Sequence record: PV805631.1
Length of the DNA: 64,000 nucleotides
Strand: one strand, 5' to 3'
Source: a phage
Every line of letters starts with the position of its first letter. Position 1 is the first letter of the stretch. Positions 35,431-46,731 of this stretch are shown one piece after another. Both the position numbers and the translations under genes were made by a program. The notes under the pieces are model-generated. The model was not told the origin of the DNA and did no database searches. It saw only the letters and a program-made list of their open reading frames with translations.

Positions 35431-35471
35431 AAAACAAAGAAAGCCCCTCTAATGAGGGGCTTTTTCATTTT
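35431..35471. terminator. Bidirectional intrinsic terminator (AAGCCCCTC-TAAT-GAGGGGCTT, T-runs on both sides)
   Basis: Hairpin sits just after the vRNAP stop on the minus strand and after the small plus ORFs. Confidence 0.6.
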
Positions 35472-44400: not shown

Positions 44401-46731
44401 ACCAGAGTTATACGCAGAACGAATGCGTTTCGCATGTTGCAACGCAGAGTACTGTCCTTCATTAGAACGAGACTCGTCGGTTTTAATCTGTTTACTAACA
44501 ATGTCTTGAGGACGTAAGCCCAGTTCTTCTGCTTTAGCATCATACTCACGTGCACCCTGTAACAGAGCAGCAGCTGATTGCAGGGCAGCACGTTGACGAT
44601 TATTCAGTGTAATCTTACCTTCACTTGCGTGCTTCAGAACCATGTTCACTGAATCTGCATCCAGTACTTCTGGAGACACATCAGCAGCCATAGCAATGTT
44701 GTTTGCTTGGGCTTGATTAGCTTCTTCAGTAGCTTTCAGTTTACCTGCTTCAGCTTGTTCCTGAATCATGGAATGGATGGCACGGAATGCACGAAGTACT
44801 TTAGGGGTATTCTGTATGTTAGCCATCAGGCCGGAGAACTGGTCTACGATTGCAGCAGCAGGAGAACCTTGTTCCAGATTAGCCAGAGCACCTGGGTCAC
44901 GGTTAATGAAGCTATCCATAGACATGATGTTGTCATACATCTGGATTGCAGCTTCCATTTGAACGTCAGGGTCTTCAGCAGTATTAACCAAGTCAGCCAT
45001 CTTCTGAATAGCTTCCACACGGTTAGTGGAACCAGAAACAGCTTCACGGATTACTGGGTTGGCTTGTTCCAATTCTACTGGGTCAAACTTCATTGCCTGA
45101 GTCAAGTCAGCAGCATACTGGGTAGCAGCAGCTTTCTCTTCTGGAGTGATATCCATTGCATCTACTGCTTCCTGTACGGTTGCCTGTGCTTGTTCTGCCT
45201 GAGCAACAGCTTCCTGTGCAGCAGCATTAACCGTAGCATCGGCTACAGGGGATGCTTGTTCATTACGCTTAGCAACTTCTTCCCCACGTTGAACCAGGAT
45301 GTTAGTAAGAGGAGATGCAGCTTTTGCTAATGTTTTACCAACCAGAGAAGCACCAGCCAGAGTGGTACGAAGAGCAGGTCCAGCAGCAGCACCGGCAGCT
45401 TTAACAGTTGCACCAGGAGCCTGAGCAACACCAGCACTACCGAAGCCATAGAGTGCACCAAGACCCGCTTGCTCACCGACACCTTTGAGGGTATCTCGGG
45501 ATGCATCAACATTTTCCTTGATTGCACGGTTCTGTGCGAACTGACCAAAGCCTGATTGAGTACCCTCTTCAAAAGTCTGAGCACCAAGGTTAGTAAGAGC
45601 TGCCCCAGCAGAACCAACCCTCATGGGGTTAAGTTCAAACTTAGATACTAACGGACCCATAGCAGCAGCAACTGGGGCAGTTAAGGCAGCAGCAATGATA
45701 CCCGTTTCAGATGCAGTCTGACGACGTGCTTCATCAGGAGATAAACCATCAGCAATATGTTGTTGGTAAACAGGAGACTTACTTGCCAGTTCTGGATGGG
45801 ACATCTTCATGATTTCAGAAGCAGTCTGTTGGTATGCACCCCCGGCTTCCATGCCACCGATTGCAATAGCAGGTGCAGCAACACGACCAGTAGACAATGC
45901 AACCTGTGCAGGACGTGAACCCAACCCAGCAGCTAAGGTAATACCCTTAACAGCTTTATCACCACCTACCATTACTTTACCGAGTGCAGATACACCACGA
46001 ATAAGTGGACCACCAGTAAAGAGGGAACCGACACCCTCACTCAGTCCATCTGAGGCAGCCATACCATTATCAAGTGTGTTAGCAACAGAGTCGAAAGCAT
46101 CACGACCAATACGAGACAGGGAGGCAACCAAATCACTCTCCCCGTTTTTGATGTCCTGTTCATAGAGTTTCTGGTTCTTTTGAGCAGAAATCTGGTTCTG
46201 ATTCTGAACAACTTTACGGGTAGCATTCAGTGCATCAGACTGTAGATTGTGTACGCCTTCATTCAGCCAATCCATCCCGGAAGCAATGGTTGCCCCGGCA
46301 TTATCATTGACCAGACCTGCGCCAAGAGCAGCAATGCCCCCAAGGGTATTAGCAACACCAAGACCAACACCAGAAAGAGTATCGCCAAATGCTTCTGCGT
46401 TAGTACGCTGTTTAGATAAGTCCTGACGTACAGCATCCGCAGCATTAGCTCGGCTATTAAGAATCTGTAAACCTTGCTCATTACCGTACTTATTAATGAT
46501 TTCTAATGGGGAGGCTTGAGTGAAGTCTGCCTGAAGTGAACCTGGTTCGAATGCACCGATTCCAAGATTACCTACTCGTCCAGTCTGGAGAGTGTAAGCA
46601 TTCTCTGGGGTTAATTGGAAAGGGCTTTGCCCTTGTGCAGCTTGCTTCTGAGAGGTTGCAGTAGAGACATCGACTTGCTTAGCATTAGTGATGCTGTCTG
46701 CGAAACCTGCCAGACGGTCAAATGTTGACAT
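35470..46731 (-). CDS. Virion-encapsidated RNA polymerase (N4 gp50-like vRNAP)
   Basis: Single ORF of about 3750 aa; T7-like motif A (VEADGVTNGPINAM) and motif B (RGIAKNPLTITIYGSG); start moved to the ATG at 46731 with AGGAAA upstream. Confidence 0.9.
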   Translation of the reverse strand: MSTFDRLAGFADSITNAKQVDVSTATSQKQAAQGQSPFQLTPENAYTLQTGRVGNLGIGAFEPGSLQADFTQASPLEIINKYGNEQGLQILNSRANAADAVRQDLSKQRTNAEAFGDTLSGVGLGVANTLGGIAALGAGLVNDNAGATIASGMDWLNEGVHNLQSDALNATRKVVQNQNQISAQKNQKLYEQDIKNGESDLVASLSRIGRDAFDSVANTLDNGMAASDGLSEGVGSLFTGGPLIRGVSALGKVMVGGDKAVKGITLAAGLGSRPAQVALSTGRVAAPAIAIGGMEAGGAYQQTASEIMKMSHPELASKSPVYQQHIADGLSPDEARRQTASETGIIAAALTAPVAAAMGPLVSKFELNPMRVGSAGAALTNLGAQTFEEGTQSGFGQFAQNRAIKENVDASRDTLKGVGEQAGLGALYGFGSAGVAQAPGATVKAAGAAAGPALRTTLAGASLVGKTLAKAASPLTNILVQRGEEVAKRNEQASPVADATVNAAAQEAVAQAEQAQATVQEAVDAMDITPEEKAAATQYAADLTQAMKFDPVELEQANPVIREAVSGSTNRVEAIQKMADLVNTAEDPDVQMEAAIQMYDNIMSMDSFINRDPGALANLEQGSPAAAIVDQFSGLMANIQNTPKVLRAFRAIHSMIQEQAEAGKLKATEEANQAQANNIAMAADVSPEVLDADSVNMVLKHASEGKITLNNRQRAALQSAAALLQGAREYDAKAEELGLRPQDIVSKQIKTDESRSNEGQYSALQHAKRIRSAYNSGNFDLASAYLSDFMKFAQHMQNKVGALNEHLISGNADKNKSVHYQALTPTREWVRSRTGLGVNPYDTKSVKFAQQVALEAKTVADIANALATAYPELNVSHVKVTSLDSRLNKPAAQVVKEFRQGGLNATQSQQTNEPVNQVDETPVKTQEPAITVQSKTAPVEAKETAPNTVESKSEPEKVSKPKSESTSVPNGPEMKTAEFTGKQQATYMQIGQYFDYNGKEYISLGKDIEGVRAVPSTGGKTIVIPGESTVTGKSDVLTSFKYGKTNVPYVMTPEGRIFSLRSTREVWSSPSQARNDFMNYVRNTFSQPEVTPVQEEKVPKSEKASPVVDDATLTNEDTIEQPTESERDAYVKENTISQETLNKYGDRRESPWLFADGTVVGSNGDHISLSDVFGHDGYRDMSLDTGAIRSMFYKGSEQPFVSLQLFDDQKLTAEQFNTVQSFVEANNAHILVGVDTSGLNTNNVEEDEVSLAQLKADYTVGGKPLSGMEAVFPVYNNEKTPNQFLKAFTLPEEPKTRTIGSESPLADIKKALSSAARFEAFTQKENNVLAGDVLERYQDLMDFGETLKTTLSERLAKFLANKNVGKRFAEGTEANRWVGGKLLNIVEKDGDTFKFNDQLLETAVLAGLQWRLTATQNAAIKDMKDVAAITGVDASLLPESILAEFDNAQTLIEATNSLAQKIESYWGLNRNPNAPLGYTKGIPVAMATEILSSLIEMGAVTETMLDVSEIDPDSNKTIGLYTINKLADKDPINNFPTAIEEAVLVNPEEKTYFGDDIPSVAQTQLRNPAVRNTPEQKAALKAEQATEFRVHMPMVNFYEALGRDGILELMGAGTLNPKLLNGNTAKSLEGKNLSVSMAYDSLFGLINQLKEQENGLDTPIHYGYNMTRVGRMQMLGKNNPQSSKLVREAILPTFSTIDLSNENSQAFSDFQLGLAQALGIKVHKMSREAMSENLTKALEGNLKPAVDMMVEFDKSGYLPTDAVDILKTSLGDNKSFVALMALMEYARYLNSDDRVNFTTPLYVEADGVTNGPINAMVLMTGGKFTPDWIKNTAKGGLFFGRAGKTMNEHCSIDDNVDLYEASTNGLQQALNELRTTYRNNVPVMNQINHLQKLMDLFIKDFNLNEDGTLDLKRGIAKNPLTITIYGSGARGIAGKMVSAITDTIYERFSDVLQARAADPSISPAMAMFGKEAASEADAQAMLDTFLTSMEALTGKIPAKRKGKLFIKEVDGALTGKLDPQKFTVSGNALKNLQENMLHLFVEPMRTGIRNTVGEGLMYSTENLQKATQIQSLVLQDMFQQAVQAKLAEKEKDPTWKKGDFLTQKELNEIQESLSPLAPMIETGSQTFYLAGSESTDVANQVLATNLDDRMRVPMSIYAPSQAGVAGIPFMTIGTGDGMMMQTLSTMKGAPKNTLKIFDGMNIGISDITDASRKANEAVYTSWQGNPIKAVYESFSEFLKNVDFDKLSDKTIDDIARSALDFEQLSHISRVEGDRQYKIDMIKNSGVNLIERNLRNIALSVDIRHKVMNQVQTTVDQMAAVGAPYVNNGKISLEGLTVDQQVAKLNELFDAELNKRRDAVRAAKADPVKEVPTKEAPVKEVPAMEQVGRVLKSGVRLLSNTAITKLAKEMSPEQQAVLKEIQKSLAAKDYKVVYGTPAQLDAYAIEKNITRPAPEDIEAAEAGNTYGWTNFDDKTIYLVTPSLETLVHELVHASTFESVLAHYEGTPNEAVQNIEDLMNQFLALDVKDESPEVREAYADALYTINGYLSNGYIEPAIAKAAALNEYMAWGLTNQELISKQKKTTALKVMIQSVYEAIKRLVFGREEAPANADDMFSGLLFNSSVVMRGQAPTAAVAKDTTLFHNKAYGDNTRLEELGQTFDKLITNYIGSEPVQQVIREGKFSDAKKHATKVTRDVQAHGFTMNMQEQRLFTNIVAALATEAAISPAALSRAQEYYAHVTKNLTVESFMTDPDSTNPADRYYAQQKFDTIMGANNIEFDAQGRSSILPTFVGLAMVSEEVRNVLANIPVMKADKKSGNTVDAMLTNIGTAAMASLNARVAGDTKATNVQEGMDALAQTIMQTSLNAQSFYDSVATPSGNAIDRANQYLVDSIDVLSTRVLESAREVAANTKNPLVKGAAHAAQLMAAIATEKNGANVAEGVMVAMNQGKVWQPFHDLVNDLTGRTKSNASVYDLIKAVRAQVQADRQQFREHLPTTIASKFSRKLTKDEWKAMYTGMGKTDLAVLRDTMSLAEIRDLLSDQKIVDREVNKLEADLQKQAGRNWPLINRKSKQLAQYMINGTVGKNLLRNATAISRMLGERKTTRSIVDVAQLDKLITLYALEAMNKSDREMLSSLAQTEVEGMDFATSYLVGQRKDEMAKAKSDMRATLNQYKGYIPSETKQGVSLVVAEDSEFGDLIEKSYVRLGTYQGSSANRGLARSYYFAPVQAQAPFSQGILQNVRNTAGGVDLGTGFTMGSMVAGRITDKPSVDRIAKALARGERGNEPLLPVYNAKGDVVAYEQSINPNMLKHIEGENHLARAIGVWRGRQVEEAKAQRFNDMLIENLYSMYKEDIKMSAANKSQYVNLFGSKLDPVTADALKLMNSETRRKAEKLFGEGELWVRRDMLNDALGYRAASIGDAWSGNSRWSPETLNTFKKAILGLAGNRAYKYLMGGENLVQNLVKDAKTLIVVKSVVVPVVNFLANLYQMVARGVPVKNIAKSIPRKTAEINQYLKSRLRQVDAEAELRAATNPNQIRKLKAEIQSITDSHKRMSIWPLIEAGEFSSIADAGIGRDDILITEGKLHEYMEKLADKLPKSVRAAGRYALITKDTALFQGIQKTVEYSDFIAKAIIYDELTQRKGKTREEALGRVTEEFINYDRLPGRFRGYMESVGLMWFYNFKIRSAKVAVSMIRNNPVHAAMAMLAPTPTMFGNVGLPIQDNIFSIAAKGSLDYSWGFGQGLRAHNLNPWVNLVN

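Follow-up and report, generated by a model that had tools for sequence, protein, structure and literature searches.

The giant virion RNA polymerase of a G7C-like phage and two modules inserted in its tether

The 64,000-nucleotide stretch of phage DNA considered here (sequence record PV805631.1, its whole length being called the window hereafter) carries on its minus strand an 11.3-kb open reading frame (ORF). This ORF almost certainly corresponds to gp50, the virion single-chain DNA-dependent RNA polymerase (vRNAP) of a G7C-like Gamaleyavirus, the mechanism of which would, by homology, be that of phage N4. The gene is already annotated and well understood, and its family includes enzymes with full-length cryo-electron microscopy structures. 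The tether that joins the N-terminal domain (NTD) to the RNA polymerase (RNAP) domain is a simple 100-residue linker in N4; in the G7C-type phages it serves as an insertion site for two modules, named here X1 and X2, that were exchanged independently of each other. These modules are a modest and apparently undescribed detail, and vary a theme already known, that of vRNAPs as modular, polyvalent proteins.

Identity and domain organisation of gp50

The ORF listing gives a single uninterrupted frame on the minus strand (35470..46749), which encodes 3759 amino acids (aa) if counted from a TTG codon and which, once translated, contains zero internal stops. An open frame of this length in a genome of 44% GC rules out a chance origin. 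An in-frame ATG (46731..46729) leads to a protein of 3753 aa that fills, with its stop codon, the interval 35470..46731. An earlier reading made from the sequence only had preferred this ATG, preceded by AGGAAA, to the TTG. This choice is supported because the gp50 gene of G7C is annotated from the same ATG and because residue 1 of N4 gp50 (MSVFDRLAGFADS) pairs, in the phmmer alignment, with the Met encoded by this ATG (MSTFDRLAGFADS).

The DNA of the ORF displays 98.6% identity with Escherichia phage vB_EcoP_G7C over 100% of its length (megablast). The G7C record places this phage in the Schitoviridae, Enquatrovirinae, Gamaleyavirus, and annotates the matching region as gp50, 'virion RNA polymerase'; 59 other phage records span at least 80% of the gene. 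The entire window is colinear with the G7C genome, beginning at G7C position 1. Furthermore, gp50 adjoins homologues of N4 gp51, gp52 and gp53, i.e. the ejection proteins and the plug, with conserved synteny, and thus shows the arrangement by which a Schitoviridae vRNAP is recognised: a single ORF of more than 3000 aa in the virion/late gene block, beside these three homologues.

At the protein level, gp50 is identical to G7C gp50 (AEL79661.1) at 3720 of 3748 positions (99.25%), with one indel of 5 aa, and to N4 gp50 at 2309 of 3472 positions (66.5%). The alignment with N4 is colinear from end to end, and no frameshift splits the ORF. The N4 gp50 chains in the PDB (full-length 9PNQ, 9PNR, 11GP and others, as well as the mini-vRNAP crystals) match aa 1-965 and 1257-3752 with E=0 (phmmer). 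Four Pfam domains specific to the N4 vRNAP are found between aa 1575 and 2318 with scores far above the gathering scores, namely PF21624, PF21894, PF21867 and PF21769, the names in this polymerase part being vRNAP_dom_2, vRNAP_plug, N4_RNAP_helical and vRNAP_dom. The PHROGs family phrog_2206, 'virion RNA polymerase', spans aa 25-3752. The giant virion polymerase of about 3750 aa announced by the sequence-only reading is therefore confirmed, and no evidence contradicting the vRNAP identity was encountered. The one point that tempers it concerns the virion, since the G7C annotation states virion confirmation for gp51, gp54 and gp67, not explicitly for gp50; for the N4 vRNAP, presence in the virion and ejection into the host have been shown (PMC13434306).

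A giant ORF might also result from faulty assembly or annotation, as with fused genes or a pseudogene, and not encode one functional protein. The probability of this is negligible and the explanation was rejected, given the full-length colinearity with both N4 and G7C gp50 and the numerous records that cover the gene. Indeed, the gene differs from that of G7C at 138 nucleotides, 105 of which are third codon positions, and the protein at only 28 amino acids, indicating that gp50 is under purifying selection.

The succession of NTD, linker, RNAP domain and C-terminal domain (CTD) is the same as in N4 and all catalytic residues are kept, as judged by alignment (Table 1). Motif A and motif B (R, K at +4, YG at +12/13), which had been noticed in the bare sequence, are present and align to the N4 catalytic residues. 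The conserved tryptophan of the RNAP domain corresponds to N4 W129, which we take to be a promoter-hairpin recognition residue. The pair E2262-R2533 matches the D2012-R2279 salt bridge between the RNAP domain and subdomain C1 of N4, E for D being a conservative swap. The NTD shows hydrophobic peaks at aa 123-141, 237-255 and 344-362 (Kyte-Doolittle values of 1.15-1.83), and aa 224-274 align to N4 residues 224-278, the membrane-interacting helices of the N4 NTD. A conserved stretch of the NTD, aa 301-427 (window 45451-45831), resembles weakly (28% identity over 131 aa, pairwise E=0.001) aa 441-569 of P0003, a polyvalent protein in which these residues lie downstream of an SLT domain. It may be an ejection or membrane module shared by the NTDs of vRNAPs and other injected giant proteins.

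Modules X1 and X2 in the NTD-RNAP tether

As had been noticed from the sequence, the protein is longer than the N4 enzyme (3753 versus 3500 aa). The surplus had been thought to reside possibly in the N- or C-terminal injection domains; it consists instead of two modules within the NTD-RNAP linker. Indeed, alignment with N4 gp50, proposed at that time as the way to place insertions and carried out here as a three-way alignment with G7C, leaves N4 with two long gaps, one of 136 aa facing aa 962-1097 and one of 114 aa facing aa 1140-1253. Both fall within N4 residues 907-1006, a low-complexity NTD-RNAP linker of 100 residues with a reach of ~250 Å (PMC13434306, a structure paper from 2026). The 253 residues beyond the N4 enzyme thus correspond mainly to X1 and X2, plus a few small indels. 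In composition, X1 and X2 are globular and the spacers are of low complexity: the hydrophobic content is 31% for X1 and 32% for X2, the latter value being that of the RNAP domain.

When 50,697 phage records are searched with the insert (tblastn), the region is seen to vary among Gamaleyaviruses, which have no module, X2 only, or both X1 and X2. For example, the polymerases of Bp4 (3570 aa) and Bas96 (3599 aa) carry X2 without X1. N4 carries neither. The 291-aa insert and its halves match zero families in Pfam (at E<=10) and in PHROGs. The anatomy of the X1/X2 insertion was not found described in the searchable literature and is absent from the vRNAP fusions listed in PMC5512222.

Besides the window phage, G7C and Shigella phage B2 are the sole phages of these records in which X1 was detected; neither N4 nor Gamaleyaviruses beyond G7C carry it. 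The X1 of B2 gp30 (aa 966-1083) occupies the equivalent place and displays 73% identity over 127 aa, versus ~25% for the whole protein. This disparity is clear evidence, at the sequence level, for a lateral exchange of X1 with an Ithacavirus polymerase. No homologue was found elsewhere in the library of 1.84 billion representative proteins, the database of 5.8 billion clusters or IMG/VR: phmmer on the representatives gave only weak noise from FG-GAP repeats, word-indexed searches gave no match and IMG/VR returned only G7C itself. An alignment of protein P0004 reaching into X1 was judged spurious.

The distribution of X2 is far broader. It is found in ~30 Gamaleyavirus-type genomes among the phage records, and an exhaustive phmmer search of the 1.84 billion representatives retrieved homologues in 20 representative proteins, most of them giant. 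The breadth of the family rests on this exhaustive search, the word-indexed search with the X2 alignment having given P0010 only. The giant proteins that bear X2 carry SLT lysozyme, SNF2-type helicase, methyltransferase, DdrB-ParB, InPase, ART-PolyVal, LPD22, LPD38 and LPD39 domains. In one of them, P0003 (SLT, helicase, methyltransferase and LPD39), X2 displays 62.5% identity with the X2 of the window. Another protein, P0013, is a vRNAP that shares only 23-27% identity with gp50 and in which X2 is likewise located directly N-terminal of the polymerase. By contrast with these internal copies, P0010 is a stand-alone X2 homologue of 166 aa, encoded by a metagenome contig (ERZ23491061 scaffold_4375; L023 7294-7794). 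Its gene is flanked by a DNA_pol_B_exo2 gene and a gene encoding a ParB_N/HTH_ParB protein of 585 aa, followed by a Prok_Ub / Prok-E2 / JAB / ThiF ubiquitin-like cluster; this context is probably that of a large phage or mobile element.

The family is conserved down to ~30% identity across otherwise unrelated giant proteins, and the alignment of the 20 sequences shows invariant residues at S1150, P1151 and L1153 (S-P-x-L), G1157, D1165 and H1166, R1189 and Q1215. On this comparison, X2 belongs to a genuine domain family of wider distribution, whose other members are dispersed among the giant polyvalent proteins of phages. Invariance at D-H, R and Q suggests that X2 works as an enzyme or binds a specific partner, and is not an inert spacer. 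The AlphaFold2 model of X2 is of high quality (pLDDT 94.2, pTM 0.89), and an independent BFVD model of a fragment of the pSb-1 vRNAP superposes on it with a TM of 0.96, BFVD giving no other match. Neither a fold nor a PDB neighbour was recognised for X2, and its alignment profile gave nothing credible against the PDB sequences (best E of 0.011 over 37 residues). Pfam assigned no family to the 20 members (at E<=1), with scattered single matches only at E>0.04. No LPD model deposited in Pfam, to which the comparison was limited (LPD4, for example, is not among them), matches X2.

What the modules do can be read in several ways. X2, and possibly X1, may be cargo carried on the polymerase tether that acts early on a host or DNA target, a reading that we hold tentatively. 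Two observations weigh against it. The single-sequence AlphaFold2 model of X1 is uninformative (pLDDT 36). In addition, N4 and most schitoviruses work without X1 and X2, and neither module is therefore essential to the core mechanism. This dispensability also agrees with a possible, somewhat doubtful explanation in which X1 and X2 are passive structural beads that lengthen or stiffen the tether from the membrane-anchored NTD to the cytoplasmic polymerase, or help packing and threading through the tail, and have no target of their own. Indeed, both modules sit where N4 has only a disordered linker with its long reach, Gamaleyaviruses differ among themselves precisely at this place, and no catalytic fold has been recognised. 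However, a discrete family such as X2, which keeps invariant polar residues (D, H, R, Q and S-P-W) at ~30% identity across giant proteins and a stand-alone protein, is atypical of a spacer. The strong conservation of X1 between polymerases that are otherwise only ~25% identical also speaks against passive beads and points to a recent transfer together with selection for X1 itself.

A more specific proposal, which we consider rather unlikely, is that X2, and perhaps X1, is an uncharacterised effector domain, devoid of any solved structural relative, that would act on a host or DNA target within the first minutes of infection, and that the NTD-RNAP linker of schitoviruses is a plug-in site that swaps polyvalent-protein modules among unrelated phages. 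The lateral transfer of both modules, in a genome rich in HNH homing endonuclease genes according to the G7C annotation, could also evoke mobile elements of a selfish kind, inserted in frame (intein-like or associated with homing), which would be removed by splicing or merely tolerated. This is highly improbable: the 291-aa insert has no Hint/intein, LAGLIDADG or HNH match in Pfam at E<=10, the module borders lack the Cys/Ser/Thr...His-Asn pattern of splice junctions, and the flanks are P/E/K/T linker sequence and not a conserved extein. Moreover, X2 is an ordinary internal domain in many architectures and exists as a free-standing protein. The intein-like form of the proposal is excluded by these ordinary contexts and by the missing Hint and endonuclease signatures. 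If X1 and X2 are active cargo, they would offer a tractable model both for the threading of extra effectors through the tail on a 'beads-on-a-string' protein and for the function of an orphan polyvalent-protein domain; this tractability stems from G7C, which is culturable and has E. coli as host.

Predicted promoters, mechanism and other features of the window

A hairpin motif was derived from a 22-nt direct repeat at the left end of the window and then compared with N4. This motif, ACGnnGCTCCGCnnCTTATGGA, has 3 occurrences in the 64 kb versus 0.01 expected by chance. All three predicted hairpins have a 5-bp stem and a 3-nt TCC loop, i.e. GGA on the template strand, and their stems covary. They precede gp1, gp2 and gp15, and N4 has the same core motif ahead of its own gp1, gp2 and gp15; in the N4 literature these are early genes assigned to the vRNAP (PMC13434306). 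Their position supports, by homology, an N4-like vRNAP mechanism and the view that the three sites are the cognate single-stranded DNA (ssDNA) hairpin promoters of the gp50 enzyme.

By analogy with N4, the capsid would contain a few copies of gp50, which would leave it once gp52 and gp51 have been ejected. The NTD would remain at the inner membrane and anchor the enzyme. The central T7-like domain would recognise the extruded ssDNA hairpin promoters, and the injected enzyme would transcribe gp1, gp2 and gp15/16, all early genes. The large CTD bearing the HExxH motif would be required for encapsidation and would allosterically damp (autoinhibit) the polymerase. X1 and X2, each with spacers rich in P/E/K/T on its flanks, are two more 'beads on the string' of the NTD-RNAP tether.

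Table 1. Positions, in the window, of gp50, its domains and motifs, adjacent signals and the predicted early promoters
Feature	Position	Strand	Basis or remark
gp50 coding sequence, virion RNA polymerase, 3753 aa	35470..46731	-	ATG at 46731; stop 35470-35472
AGGAAA, Shine-Dalgarno-like, 6-nt spacer to ATG	46738..46743	-	Sequence
TTG picked by the ORF finder	46749-46747	-	ORF listing
Intrinsic-terminator-like hairpin, bidirectional, directly past the gp50 stop	35440..35463	-	Annotated as terminator in G7C
Terminator-like hairpin, gp51/gp50 interval	46799..46818	-	Sequence
NTD (injection / lipid-binding), aa 1-901 = N4 1-906	44029..46731	-	52-64% identity to N4; role from PMC13434306
Low-complexity linker A, aa 902-971, 67% P/E/K/S/T/Q	43819..44028	-	Aligns to start of N4 linker 907-1006
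Inserted module X1, aa 972-1087	43471..43818	-	N4 gap; composition
Low-complexity linker B, aa 1088-1139, 62% P/E/K/S/T/Q	43315..43470	-	Composition
Inserted module X2, aa 1140-1255, predicted α/β domain	42967..43314	-	N4 gap; AlphaFold2 model
Single-subunit RNAP domain (mini-vRNAP), aa 1266-2361 = N4 1007-2101	39649..42936	-	Pfam; 62-78% identity to N4
W1377 = N4 mini-vRNAP W129	42601..42603	-	Alignment
R1671 of T/DxxGR motif (TRVGR)	41719..41721	-	Alignment to N4 catalytic residue
D1806, motif A catalytic aspartate	41314..41316	-	Alignment to N4
Motif B R1913, K1917 (+4), Y1925/G1926 (+12/+13)	40954..40995	-	Alignment to N4
D2198, motif C catalytic aspartate	40138..40140	-	Alignment to N4
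RNAP-CTD linker, aa 2362-2385	39577..39648	-	Alignment
CTD subdomain C1, aa 2386-2629	38845..39576	-	Zincin-like metallopeptidase (MPTase) per PMC5512222, PMC13434306
HExxH of C1 = HELVH, aa 2487-2491	39259-39273	-	Sequence
CTD subdomain C2, aa 2630-3753	35473..38844	-	54-81% identity to N4; encapsidation / autoinhibition domain in N4
Predicted N4-type vRNAP early promoter hairpin GTTGC-TCC-GCAAC, upstream of gp1	87..108	+	N4 motif at 93-104
Predicted N4-type vRNAP early promoter hairpin GACGC-TCC-GCGTC, upstream of gp2	766..787	+	N4 motif at 562-573
Predicted N4-type vRNAP early promoter hairpin GGTGC-TCC-GCACC, upstream of gp15	4759..4780	+	N4 motif at 4551-4562

Elsewhere in the window, several differences from G7C and features shared with it were observed. 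At the left end, where the first 700 nt are only 96-98% identical to G7C, window 461-706 corresponds to G7C 546-1156 and is devoid of roughly G7C 790-1156, i.e. the gp1.2 region together with the last part of the annotated terminal repeat. Five ORFs (1376..1870, 5625..6206, 10456..10932, 26617..27114 and 33131..33628) correspond to the putative HNH homing endonuclease genes of G7C, respectively gp2.1, 15.1, gp24.1, gp41.1 and gp47.1; one HNH gene is inserted between gp15 and gp16, the RNAPII subunit genes. Towards the other end, the distal part of the gp63.1 tailspike (window 60422-62764; minus-strand ORF 60580..63114 of 844 aa) has no G7C counterpart. It displays 87-89% identity with the tail-fibre genes of phages of Enterobacter cloacae with genomes of ~39 kb (vB_Ecl_MII_002/004 and 0x_vB_Eclo_IJM). 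A receptor-binding module has thus been swapped, with a probable change of host range.

Comparison with known systems

The closest known system, G7C gp50, has the same start codon, the same two modules and the same neighbours (gp51, gp52 and gp53) as the gp50 of the window. It differs by an in-frame expansion of 5 aa in the window protein (aa 2368-2372; 15 nt, window 39616-39630), located in the P/V/K/E-rich RNAP-CTD linker, which reads …DPVKEVPTKEAPVKEVPAMEQ in the window and …EPVKEAPVKEVPAMEQ in G7C. This is the gain of a short repeat unit in a disordered linker. The nucleotide differences are also unevenly distributed: 135 of the 138 lie in a 3.5-kb patch (window 39474-43000, aa 1244-2420) with a divergence of 3.8%, mainly at third codon positions, versus a first 3.7 kb and a last ~4 kb that are identical to G7C. 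No donor closer than G7C itself (95.8%) was found in the phage collection by megablast. This clustering indicates that recombination with a relative not yet sampled has replaced only the polymerase module and, with it, the RNAP-CTD linker.

N4 gp50 (YP_950528; PDB 2PO4, 3C2P, 9PNQ, 9PNR, 9PNT and 11GP) shares with the window protein the NTD, the linker, the T7-like RNAP domain, the HExxH-bearing C1 and the helical C2. The two phages also have in common the catalytic and hairpin-recognition residues and the predicted hairpin promoters before gp1, gp2 and gp15. N4 gp50 differs by its length and by its purely low-complexity linker, devoid of both modules. The giant vRNAP of Shigella phage B2 (gp30, UUG68314.1, 3741 aa; Ithacavirus, Humphriesvirinae), which was detected in virions by mass spectrometry (PMC11654681), carries X1 at the equivalent place; however, X2 was not detected in it and the rest of this protein shows only the distant relationship mentioned above.

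The phage-type polyvalent proteins described by Iyer, Burroughs, Anand, de Souza and Aravind in 2017 are very large proteins of many domains that accompany the invading DNA into the cell. N4 gp50, with its HExxH MPTase, is listed as a prototype, and other vRNAPs are fused to ART, lysozyme or PBECR domains (PMC5512222). The gp50 of the window can be counted among them on the basis of its architecture and gene context, as a giant multi-domain late/virion protein with recurring domains and a presumed delivery. It shares X2 and an HExxH-type MPTase with polyvalent proteins, but the X2-bearing proteins of this kind lack an RNAP module. Finally, gp50 has the T/DxxGR motif and motifs A, B and C at the canonical spacing of T7-like single-subunit RNA polymerases, whereas it is ~4 times larger than these enzymes, carries the N4-specific plug and helical insertions and, by analogy with N4, would be packaged in the virion and use ssDNA hairpin promoters.

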